Positions 1,437 through 53,098 of a stretch of DNA of 53,098 nucleotides are shown here, piece after piece (the stretch's first letter is position 1; each line of letters begins with the position of its first letter). The translations under genes and the position numbers were made by a program. The notes under the pieces are model-generated. The model ran no database searches. It was given only the letters and a program-made list of their open reading frames with translations, and was not told the origin of the DNA. Source of the DNA: a virus (taxonomy: Duplodnaviria > Caudoviricetes); IMG/VR virus record IMGVR_UViG_3300025637_000017, positions 1 to 53,098 of that record; one strand, 5' to 3'.

Positions 1437-2054
1437 TTAGATTCCTTCTTTTCCTTCTTTCGGATAAATTCTGTCAGCCATAGTTTTCACCTTTTCAACT
1501 GGCTTTTTCTTCCACGCCAAGTATGGCAGATCGTTTCCCTTCTGATAAACTCTAGCGTAGAGCATAAGCATCTGCAAGTTGCACATTACGTGCGCCCAGT
1601 GGGGCTGACCACTATCATCATCGTTCTTGTAAGGATCATCCTTCATCTTCAGAAGGTGTCTTGCTGCACAACCAAACGGGACGCTCCATGGCATTCCCTT
1701 AGCCCAGTTCCAAGCTTTGTATTTCCGTTTACCAAACTCCCAAACGTGCGCTACCGAGTCGTACCCAGAGTATTCAGATATTGTTAGGTTTGATTTTGCT
1801 GCGAGCTGGAGCATTATTTTGTCTCCGAGTACTCTAATGAACTCAATATCTCCAGTGAGCTGAAAGTCCGATAGGTTCCTCCAACACTCGCGGAGCACAG
1901 GATCCTTGAACTGGGGCCCGCCCATATCCTTGAGTATGATCAACGAGTAGTCTGGTTTACCAGAGTTGTATCTGGCTCCAGTACCGATATCATCCGAATC
2001 GATATCCCCAACACAGTTCTCTTTGTTCCAAGCTTCTGCTGTCTCTGAATCCAT
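1437..2054 (-). CDS. dATP/dGTP diphosphohydrolase (DUF5664 family)
   Basis: GARYNSGKPDYSLI, FGKRKY..WNWAKG, ARHL, DDDSGQPHWAHVMCN motifs. Confidence 0.85.
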   Translation of the reverse strand: MDSETAEAWNKENCVGDIDSDDIGTGARYNSGKPDYSLIILKDMGGPQFKDPVLRECWRNLSDFQLTGDIEFIRVLGDKIMLQLAAKSNLTISEYSGYDSVAHVWEFGKRKYKAWNWAKGMPWSVPFGCAARHLLKMKDDPYKNDDDSGQPHWAHVMCNLQMLMLYARVYQKGNDLPYLAWKKKPVEKVKTMADRIYPKEGKEGI

Positions 2055-6950: not shown

Positions 6951-7806
6951 ATTAGAACATTTGATGCAGGTCCTAGGAGAGGAGTGTGGGGAGCTGGCTG
7001 TCAGAGCGAGCAAGATCAACCGATTCGGTTTGTCGGATAGGCTGAGTGGCGTGAGCAACCAAGATCGCTTGATAGAGGAGTTCAATGATCTTCTTGCGGT
7101 AGCGGAGCTTTTGAATGCGGAGTTTGATCTGAATCTTTTTCGGGATTACCGTATGGTCGACAAGAAGAAGGCTAAGGTCCTCAAGTACATGCAGTACGCC
7201 AAGGACCAAGGCACCCTGAACCCGTTTCGGGTTATTGATCGGGATCTTCCAGATGAGGATTACAAGAGTAGCTTGGCGATTGCTGAAGAGCTGATGGACC
7301 AGAGCAGATCAGCAGATTATTACTGCAACGGCGCGGGGGATTTGGAGCGCGAAGGATCGGAAACCATCGAGGCTCTGGTAGATGATCTAATACAGCGAGA
7401 CCGAGACGATGCGGATAGACTGGCAAGTACCGAGGAAGCGCTCACCGAGGAAGAGAACAAACTACCTGCTCGGATCAAGCTCGGTCGAAAGTTGCGGGAG
7501 GGGCAGAACTTCGAACCTCACGCGCAGGAGAATTTGCAGAACATACCGCGGGACAGTGAGCTCGGTCGTAAGATGACAAGTACGACCCAAACAGGATCCT
7601 ACGATATCTGGTGTGAAGGGTTCATCGCTACGGGGCAGGAAGGACCCGCTATGCTTATGGCAAAGAACGTCGAGGCGAGTTCCTTCGAGGAGGCTTGCAA
7701 TAAGTTTTTTCTTCTTAACGACACTCTTTATCTCGCAGAGAAACTGACTCACTGGGGGCGTAAGCTTTTTGATAATGAGGCAGACGCCCGAAAACGTTTT
7801 GGGTAG
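6943..7806 (+). CDS. MazG-like NTP pyrophosphohydrolase domain with C-terminal extensions
   Basis: EECGEL...SK..RFG...EEFNDLLAV in the first ~90 aa. Confidence 0.7.
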   Translation: MNRLEHLMQVLGEECGELAVRASKINRFGLSDRLSGVSNQDRLIEEFNDLLAVAELLNAEFDLNLFRDYRMVDKKKAKVLKYMQYAKDQGTLNPFRVIDRDLPDEDYKSSLAIAEELMDQSRSADYYCNGAGDLEREGSETIEALVDDLIQRDRDDADRLASTEEALTEEENKLPARIKLGRKLREGQNFEPHAQENLQNIPRDSELGRKMTSTTQTGSYDIWCEGFIATGQEGPAMLMAKNVEASSFEEACNKFFLLNDTLYLAEKLTHWGRKLFDNEADARKRFG

Positions 7807-17610: not shown

Positions 17611-18492
17611 ATGCTGTTAACTAGAGCAAAGGAGTACAGTAAGGAGCACTGCTGGCAGTATGATATCCGCCTTAGGAACCGAGAGGAGGATCTTTCCGAG
17701 TCGGGTTTTACGGAGAAGTATGTGTCTTCTTTAAGGGTGAATGATTTTGATTTTAAAGAAGTTTTTGATGTAGCGGAAAAGAAGAGCTTGGTAGAATTTA
17801 TTGTTCGCCACGAGTGGCTGGGGACGTTGTCCCAGTACACAACCAACTGGTTTGCTTGCTACCATAAAGGGGTCCTTAGCGGGGTGATCTTGTTTAATAT
17901 GCCTAACGCATTTTCTAAGTATTTGGGGGAGGAGACAAAAACATTAGAGAGGCTTATTTCTAGGGGAGCTTGTATTTCTTGGTCCCCCAAGAACCTAGCC
18001 AGTTGCTTTTTGATGTGGGCTATAAAACAAATGGTTGAGAAAACTCCCTACCGCTTGTTCACGGCTTACTCCGACCCAGCGGCAAATGAACTAGGGACCA
18101 TCTATCAGGCATGCGGGTTCTATTACCTTGGGCAGACTTTTGGAGCTAAGACAAGATACATCAACCCGTATACGGGCAAGGTTGTTTCAGATAGGTACTT
18201 TAGGCAGAAGACAGCTTACAAAAAATATGCTTCTGAGTTAGGGATAAGCTGGCAAGCCTCTTGGAACCATGCGACAGGCATGAGTTGGGGCAACATGCCT
18301 TCAGAGATGGAGAAGGTTTTAAAAGATTTTGGTAAGAAGAAACAGGCGGAGTCTGATAAAATCATGGTTCCCCTAAAACATAAGTACGCCCTCGTACTTG
18401 GCGTAGATAAGAGAGAGACTAAGAAGCTTAGGGCGGAGCTCTTAAGCAGAACGAAAGTTTTTCCATACCCTAAACAAAGAGGGGAGTTTTAG
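17611..18492 (+). CDS. Mom-like GNAT-fold DNA adenine modification enzyme
   Basis: FI.RHEW, GVILF, ISR, PKNLAS, AYSDP...E.GTIYQACGF.Y.G motifs. Confidence 0.7.
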   Translation: MLLTRAKEYSKEHCWQYDIRLRNREEDLSESGFTEKYVSSLRVNDFDFKEVFDVAEKKSLVEFIVRHEWLGTLSQYTTNWFACYHKGVLSGVILFNMPNAFSKYLGEETKTLERLISRGACISWSPKNLASCFLMWAIKQMVEKTPYRLFTAYSDPAANELGTIYQACGFYYLGQTFGAKTRYINPYTGKVVSDRYFRQKTAYKKYASELGISWQASWNHATGMSWGNMPSEMEKVLKDFGKKKQAESDKIMVPLKHKYALVLGVDKRETKKLRAELLSRTKVFPYPKQRGEF

Positions 18493-20976: not shown

Positions 20977-21759
20977 ATGACTAAGAAACAAGTTGCACCA
21001 AAGAAGAACACCGATGTGGCGGTGATCAATTATTCAAACGACGCGCAGTTAGCGACCCAGTTTGATCAGGATGATCTGACCACCCCGTTTTTAAAGGTAC
21101 TCCAAAAGCTGAGCCCTGAACTAGACTCTGATCGACCAGAGTACGTTGAGGGTGCGAAAGCAGGTATGATTATTAACACCTCGACCAAGAAGGTTTTCGA
21201 CGCACCGATCGTTGTTATCATCTGCGGCTATGAGCGCCAGATGCTGGAGTGGGTACCTCGAGAAGAGGGAGGCGGGTTCCGCGGCAGTATGGATAAAAAA
21301 GAAGCACTCGCTTTACCGAAGGACGATCGAGGTCGGTTCTTACATCCGAACGGAAACCACGTTATGGATACTCGCGTATGGTACGTGCTACACGTAACAG
21401 AGGACGGCTTACAACCAGCTGTTATCGCTCTTAAGAGCACGGGCATCAAACGGTCCAAGCAGCTGGGAGATATTATTTCTGCTGTTCGTATCGGAGAGGC
21501 GCCAAACCGCTTCCGCCCAGCTGACTGGAGCCACACGTACGTGATGGATGTTACTCACGAGCAGAAGGGCAACGACACATGGAAGCTACCACAGTTCTCT
21601 ATGGGTGAGTTGATCACTGATCCAGAAACTTACCTAGCGGCAGGAGATTTCGCTAAGATTGTTTCTAGCGGCATGGCTAAGGTAGATTATTCTCAGGATG
21701 AGGATGCGCCAGCGAGCTCAGGTAGCACAAGTTATTCTGAGGAAGATGAGGACTTCTAG
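20977..21759 (+). CDS. Putative single-stranded DNA-binding/annealing protein
   Basis: PFLKVLQ.LSPE...YVEGAKAG; acidic tail ending in F. Confidence 0.6.
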   Translation: MTKKQVAPKKNTDVAVINYSNDAQLATQFDQDDLTTPFLKVLQKLSPELDSDRPEYVEGAKAGMIINTSTKKVFDAPIVVIICGYERQMLEWVPREEGGGFRGSMDKKEALALPKDDRGRFLHPNGNHVMDTRVWYVLHVTEDGLQPAVIALKSTGIKRSKQLGDIISAVRIGEAPNRFRPADWSHTYVMDVTHEQKGNDTWKLPQFSMGELITDPETYLAAGDFAKIVSSGMAKVDYSQDEDAPASSGSTSYSEEDEDF

Positions 21760-46420: not shown

Positions 46421-46642
46421 TTATAACCCCGAGCTGATGTTAAGTCTAAAGGACTGCACGCGACTCTTAGATGGAGAATCCTTACTCTGTAGAGAAGCAA
46501 TAATTCTCTGCTCAATACGAAGCATTTCATCCAGATCTCTATACTCTACATACCGATCCTGATGCTTTGACTTAAGTTCACCAGCAGCTATTGCCTCTTG
46601 GAGATACCTTAAATCCGACTCAGTATAATTATCTACCTGCAT
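46421..46642 (-). CDS. Head completion protein (gpW-like)
   Basis: L..AIA.G......DR.VEYR.LDE. Confidence 0.8.
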   Translation of the reverse strand: MQVDNYTESDLRYLQEAIAAGELKSKHQDRYVEYRDLDEMLRIEQRIIASLQSKDSPSKSRVQSFRLNISSGL

Positions 46643-48698
46643 TATGTACCCTCCTATAAGGTCGCGCCTTCACACTTCGCCTAACTCCAGCGGAGACTAC
46701 GTTACTATTTTTTTCCATGTCCGCCGCCCATAAGGGAGGTCTGTTCCACGAAATACTGTGTCCGCCGAGTTGGTGCCAAGCGGCTAGTGCATAAACGAAT
46801 AAATCCAGTGATTCATTTGCCTTGCCTCTTATCTGTACCCAACCCTTCGCTTCTCGAATCTCCGCGTTAAGCAGCTCTTCGTAGTGTCTGTCTTTGAAAT
46901 ACTTGGGGAACTGTACGAACCCCCAACCATCGAAATCTCTGTCCAACTGACCAGCAATGTCGTCCTTAAAACGATCCGTATTGATCATCAGAACTGGCAC
47001 ATCGCCCTTACTGGAAACGTTCCTCTGTCCAGTTTGCTTTCGGGAATCAGGCCAGCTTAGAATTACCTTGTCCTGATTCTCTTTAATATTCTTCTTAACG
47101 CTGTCCCCGCCCATACCTCTGACCAGAAAACACTTTCTTTTCAAGGACATAGGGAGCTTTCTGTACCAGCTAAGAGCGTTATCATAAACACCCGCTTCGC
47201 CGCCACAATCCACAACTAGGAAGTGATTCATCAACTCCTTGCCGTCCTTAAGTTTATAAGTAGCGTTGATCTTTGCGTCTAGCAGGGACCAATCCTCTTC
47301 GTAAACCGCGGGCTGTATTCTGTCCGTCTTGCCTTCTCGATCGGTCTCGGTCAGGGTGTACCTATCAAGGTACCACGCCCTGTTTTCTGTTCCCATCCCG
47401 AACATACCAAACTCGAATCTAGATCCCTTACCACCCTGTACATCGACAGCTGTGATCAGGGTCCTAACTCCGTCTGGAACAGTGAACCTCTCTATATCCA
47501 AGGCACGTTCCTTAAGCAGCGCGAAATCCGTAGATTGTGATCTTCTAGATTTCGGTACATAAGGGTGAACGAACTCTTGGTTGTAAACGTTCTTAAGCGA
47601 GTCTTCGTCGCCCGTTCTTTCGTACTGATCCTCTGCTCTGGCGTAGGTTAACCCTATGTCAAACCAGCTATTAAAACTTGCGAACCATCCAGCGCACCAG
47701 AAGCTTGCTCTCTTAGAGACTCTTCCTTCTCCGTGCTTAACACCCTCCGAATCAATCGTCTGCCCTTCCTTTAACCAAGTTCCTGTTAAACGAAAAGCCT
47801 TCTCTTGGTCACGGGTTATGTGTTCTCCGCACAACGCGCATATCAAAGCTATTCCTGCCGCACGCTCCTCTACTGATTCATGAGGGGGTAAGTACATCGA
47901 CTCATCTGGATCAGGGCTCGGTCTAAAGTACTCCTCGCAATGAGGGCACTTAGCGTAAACCATTCTACGGTCTCCCGTATTGTACAAACCAAGGATACCC
48001 TTGGTTGGTGGTGCCTCGTGAGGTCTATCCTCGGAGGGCTTCCATGTAGGATCATCAACCTCCTTAGAAGGCGTGCTCTCTACTGCGCACATGGCTTTAC
48101 TCATGTACGTGGTCGTACGTTTCTGCATCTGATCGAAACCAGATCCTTCTCCGCCGATATCATCAGGCCACCGATCGTAATCGGTTCCTAGCATAAAGCC
48201 AATAGGCTTGCCCGCTAGCTGATTCTTACTGGGCCAACCAACGTTAAGTAGCTGCCCCGTCTTAAACTTCTTCCGCCATGTTGTATCTGCTGATCTACCA
48301 GCAAGTAACAGGCTCTTTAATTTGTCGGAGTTTGCAATCATCCGATCAAGGCGCCTTACAGAGAAATCCCCTGCGGAAGCCATATCTTTTTCAATGATCA
48401 TCGCATCCATTGGATCCGCTATGATCTTGTGTGCGGCTCCATTAAGGATCACCGATTGAGTCTTACCGTTCTGTACACCCGCCGCTAGAATCACGCTATC
48501 GTAAAACCTAGAGGTCAAGGCGTCCGCTGGTTCCCTCATCAAGGGAGCTAGTCTAGAATTGTAATAACCTGTGTACGCCTCATCCTTAAGATAAACGTAC
48601 TCTTCAGCACACTCTGTAACTGTTAATCTCTTCGGAGGACGTATTACGTCGACCGTTCTGGCTAGGGTTGCCCTAGCTGTGGCGAAGCTATTAATCAC
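46629..48698 (-). CDS. terL: Terminase large subunit (lambda gpA family)
   Basis: VQNGKT Walker A, STP, GDRR...CPHC, C..CG, AVDVQ, NE.LD..VYA; GTG start with GGAGG RBS. Confidence 0.93.
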   Translation of the reverse strand: MINSFATARATLARTVDVIRPPKRLTVTECAEEYVYLKDEAYTGYYNSRLAPLMREPADALTSRFYDSVILAAGVQNGKTQSVILNGAAHKIIADPMDAMIIEKDMASAGDFSVRRLDRMIANSDKLKSLLLAGRSADTTWRKKFKTGQLLNVGWPSKNQLAGKPIGFMLGTDYDRWPDDIGGEGSGFDQMQKRTTTYMSKAMCAVESTPSKEVDDPTWKPSEDRPHEAPPTKGILGLYNTGDRRMVYAKCPHCEEYFRPSPDPDESMYLPPHESVEERAAGIALICALCGEHITRDQEKAFRLTGTWLKEGQTIDSEGVKHGEGRVSKRASFWCAGWFASFNSWFDIGLTYARAEDQYERTGDEDSLKNVYNQEFVHPYVPKSRRSQSTDFALLKERALDIERFTVPDGVRTLITAVDVQGGKGSRFEFGMFGMGTENRAWYLDRYTLTETDREGKTDRIQPAVYEEDWSLLDAKINATYKLKDGKELMNHFLVVDCGGEAGVYDNALSWYRKLPMSLKRKCFLVRGMGGDSVKKNIKENQDKVILSWPDSRKQTGQRNVSSKGDVPVLMINTDRFKDDIAGQLDRDFDGWGFVQFPKYFKDRHYEELLNAEIREAKGWVQIRGKANESLDLFVYALAAWHQLGGHSISWNRPPLWAADMEKNSNVVSAGVRRSVKARPYRRVHNAGR

Positions 48699-49206
48699 CC
48701 TGAACTTCCTCCGACACTTCCTCCCCATCGGGATCAAGGAAGTGCTGAAGGTTATGTGCCAAAGATTGTCTTGCGTCATCTACCGATGCAAGGAACACCT
48801 TTAACTGATCAGGCTGTAACCCAACCTCATGCTCTACTCTGTCTGGAAGCGTATCTAGTGCGAACACTAACATCTTAAATGCTTCCGCTACTACGTCCCG
48901 TACTTCTTCCGCGGGTATCAATTCCCCGCAATGCTTCTCGTACGCGAGGCGCTTGTTCTCTGCGTCGTACCAATCCTTACGGTCCTTAGGATCCATCTTA
49001 TCTGGATCATTCTCTATTCCCCCAGCGTCTGCTCCCTTGACCTTCCAAGAGGGCATAACGGATAGTGCTATAGCGACTGTCTTAAACGAGTACTCTTCCC
49101 GCTTCGCAGACTTTTTGTCTGGAGCGTATCCTACAAGATACTTGATTAATGTTCGTCTATCTACTCCAGTTAGCTGGGCTAACCTGTTGACTGAAAAAGT
49201 TTCCAT
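48691..49206 (-). CDS. terS: Terminase small subunit (Nu1-like)
   Basis: N-terminal HTH; DP.KM.PK.RKDWY.AE; G.LIPA.EV. Confidence 0.85.
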   Translation of the reverse strand: METFSVNRLAQLTGVDRRTLIKYLVGYAPDKKSAKREEYSFKTVAIALSVMPSWKVKGADAGGIENDPDKMDPKDRKDWYDAENKRLAYEKHCGELIPAEEVRDVVAEAFKMLVFALDTLPDRVEHEVGLQPDQLKVFLASVDDARQSLAHNLQHFLDPDGEEVSEEVQGD

Positions 49207-49226
49207 ACATGACCGTGTGTTGGATG

Positions 49227-49610
49227 TTACGCTGCTCCCTGACTTACGCTAACAATGTAAGTCCATGTCTTATCAAAAGTATCAGCGCTGTCTGTTCCGT
49301 CTGCTTCGACGTACGGACCAACTACTCTCACATCAATTAAAACACTGGGTTCTGCGGGGACCTCCGTGGTGTCCACGGCAGGTAGGTTTAGATCGATGAC
49401 CGATATATCCCAGTCATCCTCCCGATTAGCGTTCTTAGTTAATGTGCGCCAGTCGGTGTAAGCTAGCGTGCCAACGGTAGCTCTAATGCGAGCAGTGACT
49501 ACTGCGTTATCGCTTATCTTAAACTGCTCCCCTTTAACTAGGAGTCCTGTCAAGACCACCCTTTTTTGGTAGGGTTGTCCTGTAACTAGTTTATCCAAGC
49601 TGTATTGCAT
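49227..49610 (-). CDS. Hypothetical beta-rich protein, first gene of the late operon
   Basis: I.L.L.A.DT......DV.V pattern like Ig-fold virion domains. Confidence 0.6.
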   Translation of the reverse strand: MQYSLDKLVTGQPYQKRVVLTGLLVKGEQFKISDNAVVTARIRATVGTLAYTDWRTLTKNANREDDWDISVIDLNLPAVDTTEVPAEPSVLIDVRVVGPYVEADGTDSADTFDKTWTYIVSVSQGAA

Positions 49611-49631
49611 AATCAGTGCCCTTGTGGTGTA

Positions 49632-49777
49632 AGGTGGTAACGAGACAAGTCATCAAGCATAAGGCCCATAGCCTTGGCAATCCATTACCTCGGGTTATTC
49701 CATTAAAGGCGCAGAGCCTTGGCAATCCGTTCCCTCGGGTTAGACCTTTCTATTCTTGGCAGTGTCTGTTACCACCT
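49632..49777. ncRNA. Candidate structured late-leader element with duplicated double hairpin
   Basis: Closing stem AGGTGGTAAC/GTTACCACCT; two 37-nt repeats differing only in loops. Confidence 0.45.
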
Positions 49778-49816
49778 AACTTGTGCGCGGTACCCCGCTT
49801 TATTTGTTCTTCCCCC

Positions 49817-49853
49817 AGAAACAGAAAACCCCCGCTGCGCGAACAACGAGGGT
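49817..49853 (-). terminator. Late-leader terminator (tR'-like)
   Basis: CCTCGTTG/CAGCGGGG stem then TTTTCTGTTT on the minus strand. Confidence 0.7.
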
Positions 49854-49983
49854 GCCTGTACAAGGAGGAGTCATATGAAAGAGCCCATTATGAGCGGGCT
49901 TTGGTAGGAATACCCGTATATATGTGGGTATTCCTTCATAGAACCATATTAGAGCACGGTTTGTTACTCGATGCAAGTGATTG

Positions 49984-50011
49984 ATTATAAAAGGTTTATG
50001 TTTTTGTACAA
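49984..50011 (-). promoter_or_regulatory. Late promoter TTGTAC-N16-TATAAT (pR'-like)
   Basis: Consensus -10; overlapping IHF-consensus AATCAATCACTTG. Confidence 0.6.
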
Positions 50012-50020
50012 TTTATTTCT

Positions 50021-50100
50021 AGGTCCATGGCGGACCGCGGGTTCTCGGGAACTGGCGTGCCTGCTGATTTCTAGGTGGGCTGTAAATCCTTGATTCATAA
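50021..50100. other. Candidate cos region
   Basis: GGCGGACCGCGGGTTCTCG resembles lambda cosN and flank; IHF consensus at 50083..50095; gpA-type terminase. Confidence 0.35.
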
Positions 50101-50274
50101 GGGCTTTTGAGGTGGTACCATGAGAGCGCCAAAAATATTGAGAGATCGAGCTCAATCTGCGCCCACGATCGAAAAAAAATTTTCAGGGTCCCCGTGCTTG
50201 ACATATGTCCATTATTTCTTTTTTTCCATTTCGCGGGCCGTTTTGGTCCAATTACGGACCCGTAAATTTTAGGC

Positions 50275-50300
50275 AAAAAAAACCGCCCAATTTGGGCGGT
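50275..50300 (-). terminator. Rho-independent terminator of the AT-rich operon
   Basis: ACCGCCCA/TGGGCGGT stem plus T-run on the minus strand. Confidence 0.8.
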
Positions 50301-50326
50301 ATAGGTTAAAACATTTTAGGGCTTGG

Positions 50327-50452
50327 TTATTCCTTTGGGCGCATTCCTAGCAATGCGAGCAAAACCCAAATAAATATCAATAGTATGCTCTCAATTATTC
50401 CGATGGGTTTGCTGTGCTCTGAGCTTATCGCGTCCTTATATTGGCGCGTCAT
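50327..50452 (-). CDS. Small membrane peptide (41 aa, not in ORF track)
   Basis: ATGA-coupled to upstream gene; one TM. Confidence 0.4.
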   Translation of the reverse strand: MTRQYKDAISSEHSKPIGIIESILLIFIWVLLALLGMRPKE

Positions 50453-51060
50453 AATTTCCAGCCTTCACGAACGACTAGCCAAATCACGGCCTGTAATTCA
50501 AAACCCGCAATACAGATTTGATGCGCAAGTTCTGCGGTGATACGCTCTACACGTCTGTATTGCTTAGCTGTGGGCGATTCAACTACTGCGCGGTGCTTGC
50601 CATTGTGCGCGATAGTACATGCGCGCATATGCCACCTATCAACCGTTACATGGTCGCGTGATAGTTTAGCGATGTTCATTGCAAAACTGTGTGTTTTAGG
50701 TGATACGCTTAAAAGCTGGGCTTGCTCGTTTAGTATTTTAATAGCTTTAGTTTTGTTTTGTCCATAAGTGCAAACGGTTACCGCGTGCGGGTCATTGCCT
50801 TTTGTGTACGCTTCGATAATATTAAACGCGTCTATCTTATTGCGCGACCATTTGACGCTAGGGCTTAAACACGAGACCACACAGGCCGCCACATAAGGCT
50901 CTATTTTGAATTGCTTGGCTAGAGTTTGCGTGAATGCTTGCGCCTCGCTGTACCAACTTATTCCGCGGTTTATTTGGTCATCACTTGCTGCATTGTACCA
51001 CGACAAAAGGCGGTTTTTTATTTGTCTATCACTTAGGTCTACTATTGATAATTTATGCAT
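50449..51060 (-). CDS. DUF7178-like phage early protein (possible glycosylase-like fold)
   Basis: G..WY..A, VV..LSP...W..N, PKT..F..NI, VTVDRW. Confidence 0.6.
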   Translation of the reverse strand: MHKLSIVDLSDRQIKNRLLSWYNAASDDQINRGISWYSEAQAFTQTLAKQFKIEPYVAACVVSCLSPSVKWSRNKIDAFNIIEAYTKGNDPHAVTVCTYGQNKTKAIKILNEQAQLLSVSPKTHSFAMNIAKLSRDHVTVDRWHMRACTIAHNGKHRAVVESPTAKQYRRVERITAELAHQICIAGFELQAVIWLVVREGWKL

Positions 51061-52932: not shown

Positions 52933-53098
52933 GCTATTTTCAGCGATTGTCAAGCTATTTTTGCCATTATTTCGCTTTATTTTATACTGTATATACGTAC
53001 AGTATCGGACCATTCACCAAACTTATGTCCGCCATTCACTAAATGAATCATGGGCGATCGGGTACTATTCACCAAATCAATGACAAAGCCCACCCCCA
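52933..53098. repeat. Terminal direct repeat, right copy
   Basis: Matches 1..167 with 2 differences. Confidence 0.9.

Follow-up and report, generated by a model that had tools for sequence, protein, structure and literature searches.

The cosB layouts described in the available part of a study of phage N15 (PMC4669245) are the closest described systems for the locus considered here. In lambda cosB, site R2 is oriented opposite to R3 and R1. N15 has a single critical site for the small terminase subunit (TerS), R3, at bp 48-59, which is "positioned similarly" to lambda R3 and whose distance is critical, and a remote inverted accessory site, rR2, lies about 200 bp away. The TerS recognition helix is the same in N15 and Monarch, yet their cosB are simple and complex, respectively. 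The ends of phage Chi have been mapped as 12-base 5′ extensions, GGTGCGCAGAGC, and its left end is separated from the terminase genes by more than 10 kb (PMC4342425). A different kind of element is represented by the put RNAs of phage HK022, which according to the accessible portion of PMC9378689 are about 70 nt long, form two long bulged stem-loops, and are found immediately past PL or about 270 nt beyond PR, both early promoters, upstream of the terminators that are suppressed.

The window analyzed here, 53,098 bp, is the whole of virus record IMGVR_UViG_3300025637_000017; its bases 1-167 are repeated at 52933-53098 with one indel. The metagenomes with DNA of this phage are labeled marine or sediment. 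A co-oriented gene array of about 25 kb (49610 to 24197) on the minus strand, the sense strand for the late genes, encodes ORF127, TerS, the large terminase subunit (TerL), and head and tail proteins including a lambda-family portal, an S49 protease and capsid protein E. Replication genes (Prim-Pol/DUF5906, SNF2 helicase and family A polymerase) are on the plus strand. The combination of a GpA-type TerL with a lambda-type portal and capsid E is cos-type head machinery. Between the preceding minus-strand gene set and ORF127 lies a noncoding leader, and at its end, 19 nt upstream of ORF127, an inverted repeat that encloses two tandem units. The element had been placed at the head of a 25-kb operon when read from sequence only; this is right as to position, for a single transcript that is putative. 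In sense-strand order the leader comprises the upstream terminator (50300-50272), a block shared with relatives (50194-50091, the common block), an TTGTACAA box, two hairpins, a terminator-like hairpin, a GC palindrome and the element, followed by ORF127:

50272-50300, minus strand: strong intrinsic terminator closing the upstream minus-strand gene set (-14.1 kcal/mol, U8)
50154-50165, minus strand: putative cosN 12-mer, matching 8/12 bases of the Chi/Seifer cohesive end and 8/12 of the first 12 bases of the Carli record
50110-50118, minus strand: site a, GTACCACCT, conserved in 3/3 phages at fixed spacing from the cosN-like core
49984-50011, minus strand: TTGTAC-N16-TATAAT, a candidate sigma-70 promoter recognized by eye that the promoter scan did not call
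49872-49940, minus strand: two leader hairpins (z -4.5)
49818-49853, minus strand: terminator-like hairpin and U-tract in the sense-strand leader (-21.2 kcal/mol, z -2.4)
49785-49798: GC-rich near-palindrome, then a T-rich run on the plus strand; weak hairpin (-5.9 kcal/mol, z -1.6)
49763-49780: arm b of the inverted repeat, carrying TTACCACCT on the plus strand at 49769-49777
49755-49761: third CTTGGCA, possibly a degenerate third unit running into arm b
49706-49750: tandem unit 2, differing from unit 1 at 8/45 positions
49661-49705: tandem unit 1, consisting of palindrome AAGGC-N5-GCCTT, GGC, imperfect palindrome AATCC-N8-GGGTT and an 8-nt tail
49629-49647: arm c, the promoter-distal arm of the inverted repeat, carrying TTACCACCT on the minus strand at 49640-49632
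49227-49610, minus strand: ORF127, first gene past the element, no family match
48691-49206, minus strand: TerS (DUF1441, phrog_141), with an HTH-like N-terminal region
46629-48779, minus strand: TerL, GpA type, with ATPase and nuclease domains

The sequence-only reading had described two 37-nt units (49661-49697 and 49706-49742) of the form AAGGC-N5-GCCTT-GGC-AATCC-N8-GGGTT, inside a perfect 10-bp stem extendable past a bulge, with a third CTTGGCA following. We recovered each of these features. The formula is present in both copies, which are identical at 33/37 positions, and the four differences (unit positions 6, 9, 24 and 27) all fall in the N5 and N8 spacers. The closing stem joins 49632-49641 to 49768-49777, and past a 1-nt bulge five more Watson-Crick pairs (49643-47/49763-67) extend it; the extra CTTGGCA is at 49755-49761. 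Outward, the stem reaches 12/13 bp with one A.A mismatch (49629-49641/49768-49780), and its pairs are 17/17 Watson-Crick with zero G.U. The tandem repeat likewise reaches 45 nt, 49661-49705 against 49706-49750 with 8 differences; our repeat search reported 44 nt at 84% with spacing 45, while Tandem Repeats Finder at score 30 returned zero rows. Both GCCTTGGCAATCC and AAGGC-N5-GCCTT occur exactly twice in the 53-kb genome, each time within the element. Differences between the units are patterned: 0/8 fall in the 20 stem positions (p about 0.005) and 7/8 on every third base (p about 0.008), a joint outcome with probability 4.5e-6 by simulation in what was a post hoc test.

Three IMG/VR fragments are identical to this phage across the element, and the sole leader difference is a SNP at 49898, which disrupts one leader-hairpin stem in 2/3 of them. 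Further relatives were found through the terminase genes: G001, a complete genome, with TerS at 76-78% and TerL at 77% to this phage, and G002, with 71% and 78%. Neither arms b and c nor the units are present in either (0/2, in 3-kb loci around the common block), and the GC near-palindrome is missing from both. Instead G001 and G002 have 6-7 kb of unrelated genes between the common upstream block and ORF127/TerS, and their leaders are short. Homologues of ORF127 are near TerS in three related phages, adjoining it in two and two ORFs apart in G002; in metagenome contig L046 there is a gene immediately upstream of the ORF127 homologue. Among the sequences compared, only this lineage has the segment from 49611 to about 49990.

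Searches with TerS, ORF127 and TerL yielded the three identical fragments together with G001, G002, L046 and L049, and the element is in none of these last four. No sequence-variant homologue of the element was found by these searches or with the unit pattern. The unit pattern gave five stretches in viral contigs, of which three are the same phage and two (L009 and L011) are chance matches in coding DNA; genome contigs gave 23 single matches in unrelated taxa, with no locus having two, about the hand-estimated number for an 18-base pattern. BLASTN in distant mode with 49400-50100 found no match among phage records.

The common block, 50091-50194, is the only noncoding block held jointly with G001 and G002, and lies about 375 bp upstream of the element. 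Its core was found once per genome in 3/3 related phages; the cos-block pattern retrieved five stretches from viral contigs, all known relatives, and none new from genome contigs. The closest cultured relatives of TerL are Casjensviridae, the group of Chi and Seifer, at 37% identity. The Seifer record begins with the Chi 12-mer and the record of Sphingomonas phage Carli with a 2-mismatch version, and it is with these that the 12-mer in the core of the block was compared. Two Logan runs, each from a different study, have DNA contigs that stop at 50150 and 50155 with no loose ends, and nine DNA runs (eight studies) contain just 0.74-0.77 of the words sampled from 49300-50400, the value expected if the runs hold everything to the left of about 50150. 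The contig ends could alternatively be assembly-graph branch points at a mosaic junction. The same block can be read as a promoter of the activator type, in which G001 and G002 have TATAAT and this phage TATTTT. We infer, at somewhat better than even odds, that cos is located in the common block; the left cohesive end of the mature genome would then probably be at about 50154-50165, on the minus strand.

Several observations touch on this block. By eye, the left ends of the DUF1441-TerS phages cdtI, yong2 and Cy-LDV1 contain nothing like it, and the mEp460 record starts at the TerS ATG by convention. A MAFFT alignment of Chi-type left ends with the common block was not robust beyond the core. 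The lack of any DNA contig to the right of 50155 in X10 and X11 is a gap in cover and uninformative, and record 4 of X10 (35 nt, 5 mismatches) is an unrelated GC-rich contig. The GC palindrome at 49785-98 was considered as cosN and rejected, 0/2 relatives having it with up to 3 mismatches allowed.

Site a lies beside the core of this block. If bp 1 is taken as 50165, it occupies bp 48-56 from the putative end, which would be the place of R3 in lambda and N15, and zero indels separate it from the core in 3/3 phages. Its motif, KTACCACCW, has three matches in 53 kb, all within 49632-50118 and on the minus, plus and minus strands: site a, arm b and arm c. Site centers are 341 and 137 bp apart. 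The 9-mer of arm b, at about bp 389-397 from the putative left end, is inverted with respect to sites a and c, and that of arm c is at about bp 526-534. We therefore read the element, tentatively and with a probability of about 0.4, as a set of accessory terminase-binding sites that would act at the DNA level in a packaging-recognition region, with TerS as the inferred ligand. Terminase-binding repeats had been offered earlier as one explanation, and this is the one we favor, with a change of parts: the candidate sites are not the 45-nt units, and are instead the closing-stem arms, which share a motif with the conserved site by the probable cos. The units themselves were tried as TerS sites and set aside, G001 being without AAGGC-N5-GCCTT at up to 1 mismatch and having a single, chance-level match to the unit 13-mer. 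Repeats in such a position have counterparts in Chi, Seifer and Carli, where motifs of 10-16 bp particular to each phage recur in direct and inverted orientation, 120-500 bp from the end; a literature search on left-end repeats of Casjensviridae found nothing relevant on their function.

Several points count against sites for terminase in the arms. The coincidence of the 9-mers was noticed post hoc, with 1.19 matches expected and 3 reached by 10/100 shuffles. Complementarity between the arms runs to 17-18 bp, double the length of the shared 9-mer, and site a matches arm c at only 13/19 positions. The TerS here is of the DUF1441 type, which may differ from the Chi TerS type. The 45-bp units and their every-third-base differences are left unexplained. 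Arms b and c are missing in 2/2 relatives, even though G001 and this phage agree at 47/56 of the N-terminal 56 TerS residues; this absence is not decisive, because N15 and Monarch differ in cosB layout despite sharing a recognition helix.

If the arms do bind terminase, TerS anchored at site a would set TerL to nick cosN, and the remote inverted pair b and c, 137 bp from center to center (about 13 helical turns), would add TerS contacts, by wrapping or looping, on the first-packaged end. A 15-bp palindrome is present in each of the two 45-bp units, which might be sites for some bending or bridging protein, or might be spacer DNA. In any mRNA made from the region the arms would pair as well, either as a by-product or as a second function.

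Transcription of the region, and what an RNA from it would look like, bear on the other explanations. On either strand the 161-nt stretch forms a better fold than its shuffles do (z -3.7 for plus, -3.0 for minus), mostly because of the long inverted repeat. Single units have no significant advantage of this kind (z -1.8 and -1.3 on plus, about 0 on minus), and we estimate that the hairpins within a unit are short enough to have arisen by chance. On the minus strand the closing stem has a pair probability of about 1.0, while the unit hairpins reach 0-0.13 in three cases and 0.5-0.7 in the fourth; the second hairpin of each unit is lost there because of C.A mismatches. On the plus strand the minimum free energy (MFE) structure includes all four hairpins and the closing stem, with pair probabilities of 0.9 for the second and fourth hairpins (H2/H4) and about 0.46 for the first and third (H1/H3). 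The duplicated double hairpin proposed in the sequence-only reading thus forms in plus-strand RNA, the antisense of the late genes, and not on the sense strand; its remark that one G-U pair favors the plus strand is borne out in that the second stem has T.G on that strand and C.A on the minus. A cmscan of 49000-50600 against Rfam, with E up to 10, gave five weak matches, none overlapping 49629-49780.

The main alternative is that the closing stem, about 18 bp, acts in the late mRNA leader, through RNase III-type processing, as a 5′ stabilizer, or by shielding long untranslated RNA from Rho, with the units mattering little. We regard this as possible, though doubtful. It draws on the location of the element between the terminator at 50300-50272 and the first late gene, because of which late transcripts must cross it unless there is a promoter inside, and none was found: sigma-54 and sigma-70 promoters within the units were poor by eye and none was found by scan. 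A promoter scan of 49500-50500 called no promoter-like site on either strand. The TTGTACAA box, within the candidate promoter at 50011-49984, is kept in relatives. The near-certain pairing of the closing stem on the sense strand favors such a role, as do the folding of the 541-nt leader (z -3.1), the terminator-like hairpin at 49853-49818, which suggests a regulated leader, and contigs from two RNA libraries that cover 49488-49729 and 49766-50048, though these contigs are strandless and may be DNA carry-over. (The stretches 48600-49487 and 49730-49765, where RNA-library contigs are lacking, are gaps in cover and uninformative.) Against it, unit hairpins are mostly unformed on the sense strand, with unit folds at z about 0, and the closing stem is without G.U pairs. 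Three fragments are identical here, and 2/2 relatives, whose leaders are short, are without the whole segment. An mRNA stem would moreover leave unexplained why the arms copy the conserved cos-proximal 9-mer. Terminase sites and a stem in the mRNA can coexist, because any transcript across the arms forms the closing stem.

The form of leader RNA first suggested, a cis-acting RNA with put of HK022 as its analogue, is not supported. Put RNAs work by way of the zinc-binding domain in the beta-prime subunit of RNA polymerase. Paired stem-loops in a phage leader were the basis of that analogy, yet here the stems are 5 bp long in units of 37-45 nt that are mostly unfolded on the sense strand and fold like shuffles; the element is at least about 200 nt past the nearest candidate promoter, itself read by eye, and about 40 nt downstream of the terminator-like hairpin at 49853-49818, so that size, stem length, strand and position all fail.

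That the element is a new structured RNA in a stronger sense, either a plus-strand antisense RNA of about 180 nt gating the packaging and late genes, or terminase sites in dual use that also form an mRNA stem, seems unlikely to us. With sites in dual use, packaging of the genome would be coupled to translation of late genes or to processing of the mRNA. Docking sites for terminase look likelier than a new regulatory RNA, and neither is proven. An antisense RNA, an insertion and a coding relic are each less likely than sites for terminase in the arms or a stem in the sense-strand leader.

Pneumococcal BOX elements have an A-B-B-C layout in which complementary end modules surround a tandem internal module of about 45 nt, and are small and intergenic. 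The present element is likewise small and intergenic, with end modules around a tandem module of about 45 nt, and might be a selfish or neutral insertion, either a miniature inverted-repeat element whose interior is the 45-nt tandem module or a functionless decaying duplication. It is a 152-bp unit bounded by inverted repeats of 13-18 bp (12/13 bp plus 5 bp), in a lineage-specific segment where relatives have 6-7 kb of unrelated genes, and CTTGTG occurs near both outer edges (49621-26 and 49780-85). However, these hexamers make no clear target-site duplication, the left one being offset by 2 nt and the right one overlapping the arm. Miniature inverted-repeat elements are multicopy within one genome or across related ones, and this element is single-copy in the phage genome; the viral contigs gave the same phage (3/5 stretches) and two chance coding matches, and the 23 matches in genome contigs were all single. 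The element differs from BOX in that no second copy of it appeared in the searched genome, viral contigs or genome contigs, and in that the arms here copy a conserved cos-proximal motif. The differences between units also avoid the stems, and we hold an insertion to be improbable.

Still less probable is a small antisense RNA from the plus strand, about 180 nt long, starting at about 49620, consisting of the closing stem and four hairpins, ending at 49785-49808 and acting on the 5′ end of the late mRNA. All four hairpins join the closing stem in the plus-strand MFE structure at the pair probabilities given above, the T.G pairs are valid on that strand only, and a small GC hairpin followed by TTTATTTGTT lies directly 3′. 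Yet the scan of 49500-50500 was promoter-free, with a single CATAAT lacking a -35 seen by eye; the 3′ hairpin is weak, 16/200 shuffles being as good; the plus-strand unit folds are not significant; Rfam gave no match; and one RNA-library contig, from 49729 to 49488, extends well beyond the proposed start. A coding sequence or relic, with the 45-nt repeat as a 15-residue repeat either in a 122-codon plus-strand ORF (49616-49984) or in a short minus-strand upstream ORF, is very improbable: the 7/8 unit differences on one codon phase fall at the third position in both candidate frames and the plus frame is open for 122 codons, but among 5.8 billion proteins there was only a self match (1 protein among the 2 candidates), the coding score per codon, -0.18 to -0.22, is one that shadow ORFs give (ORFs taken as genes, trained-on or family-matched, have about 0.02 or more), no Shine-Dalgarno was seen by eye before the GTG, the residue is changed in 4/7 altered codons in the plus frame, and the minus frame, with 4/8 changed or 5/9 counting the stop, is interrupted by that stop at 49750-52.

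If the arms are terminase sites, the phage would have a cosB whose recognition sites are spread over about 500 bp with a tandem-palindrome module between them, and close relatives with one site. They would then be a natural pair for studying the use of remote accessory sites by small terminase subunits, a question left by the N15 work, as far as the available part of that study goes (PMC4669245). The group of uncultured marine phages to which it belongs, with a terminase closest to that of Chi-type phages, also gains a putative, testable cos assignment. Should the leader RNA explanation prove true, the structure would be lineage-specific and outside known families. As one element in one phage lineage, it is of modest general importance either way.

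By analogy, the element would work most like an extended cosB, of which its membership is unproven. The direct, inverted and direct order of sites a, b and c is that of lambda R3, R2 and R1. Lambda cosB spans 120 bp with its R sites close together, whereas here two 45-bp units lie between the arms, and the extra copies are about 390 and 530 bp from the end, compared with up to about 170 in lambda and about 250 in N15. Lambda has a site for IHF between its R3 and R2, and inspection of the present locus by eye gave no match to the IHF consensus. The TerS of this phage is of the DUF1441 type, unlike those of lambda and N15, and the motif is unrelated in sequence to theirs as given in the available part of PMC4669245. 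With Chi, Seifer and Carli the phage shares a GpA-type TerL (37%), a similar cohesive-end core and several hundred noncoding bases with repeated motifs; it differs from them in motif sequence and copy number, and in the distance of the terminase genes from cos, more than 10 kb there and about 1 kb here. The likeness to N15 is twofold: arm b is remote and inverted like rR2, and one-site and multi-site layouts would occur among close relatives.

A single noncoding block, at 50091–50194 of the window, is shared with two related phages that lack the repeat element of 49629–49780 (G001, a complete genome, and G002). Its positions are:

Window, 50091–50194, minus strand
G001, 7485–7587
G002, 21539–21609

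At the core of the block is a unique 19-mer similar to Chi-type cohesive ends; the block also carries a conserved 9-mer whose spacing is fixed, and GGGG(A/T)C(C/T)CT is conserved within it about 25–30 nt upstream. The block is probably a cos site, but it can also be read as an activator-type promoter. DNA contigs from two runs in two studies end at 50150–50155, with no loose end, and in nine DNA runs (eight studies) only the part of 49300–50400 to the left of these positions is present. Either the DNA physically ends here or this is a mosaic junction. The ends of the record itself overlap by about 166 bases (1–167 against 52933–53098, differing by an indel of one base); a circular or concatemer-derived assembly is therefore probable. 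In IMG/VR the record is listed as linear. Elsewhere the window encodes a dATP/dGTP diphosphohydrolase N-terminal domain (1437–2054, minus strand) and a Mom-family protein (17611–18492, plus strand), which jointly hint at modified DNA bases.

The first gene after the element, ORF127, represents a small family of proteins without a match in Pfam or PHROG, whose members are found at:

Window, 49227–49610 (ORF127)
L004, 2597–2980
L019 (the G002 locus), 2298–2675
L046 (a metagenome contig), 244–621

In the window, in G001 and in L046, the gene just downstream of ORF127 is that of the small terminase subunit (TerS); in G002 two ORFs lie between them. Between the shared block and TerS, G001 (about 7.7–14.6 kb) and G002 (L019 1–4000) carry 6–7 kb of genes, none with a homologue in the window, where noncoding DNA of about 480 nt takes their place.

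The late leader, upstream of ORF127 on the minus strand, holds hairpins and short repeats besides the element:

49818–49853, minus strand, strong terminator-like hairpin with U-tract, about 40 nt upstream of the element
50015–50024 and 50067–50076, two copies of ATTTCTAGGT
49906–49935, palindrome with GGGTATTCC, near copy at 49692–49701 within unit 1 of the element

A terminator-like hairpin inside the leader suggests that the late genes are controlled by attenuation or antitermination. Another hairpin stem, at 49882–49900, is not strictly maintained, since a G/T difference at 49898, seen in two of three IMG/VR fragments, disrupts one of its pairs. Within the element, seven of the eight differences between the two 45-nt units (49661–49750) fall on every third base; neither of the two open frames across the units looks coding by its score, and a search with the plus-frame ORF gave no homologue.

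We found no literature describing a function for the repeats at the left ends of Chi, Seifer (Casjensviridae) and Carli (a Sphingomonas phage), the phages used for cohesive-end comparison. Their left-end noncoding regions (L067 220–505, L080 240–710 and L079 120–475) contain many copies of phage-specific 10–16-bp motifs, in both direct and inverted orientation.
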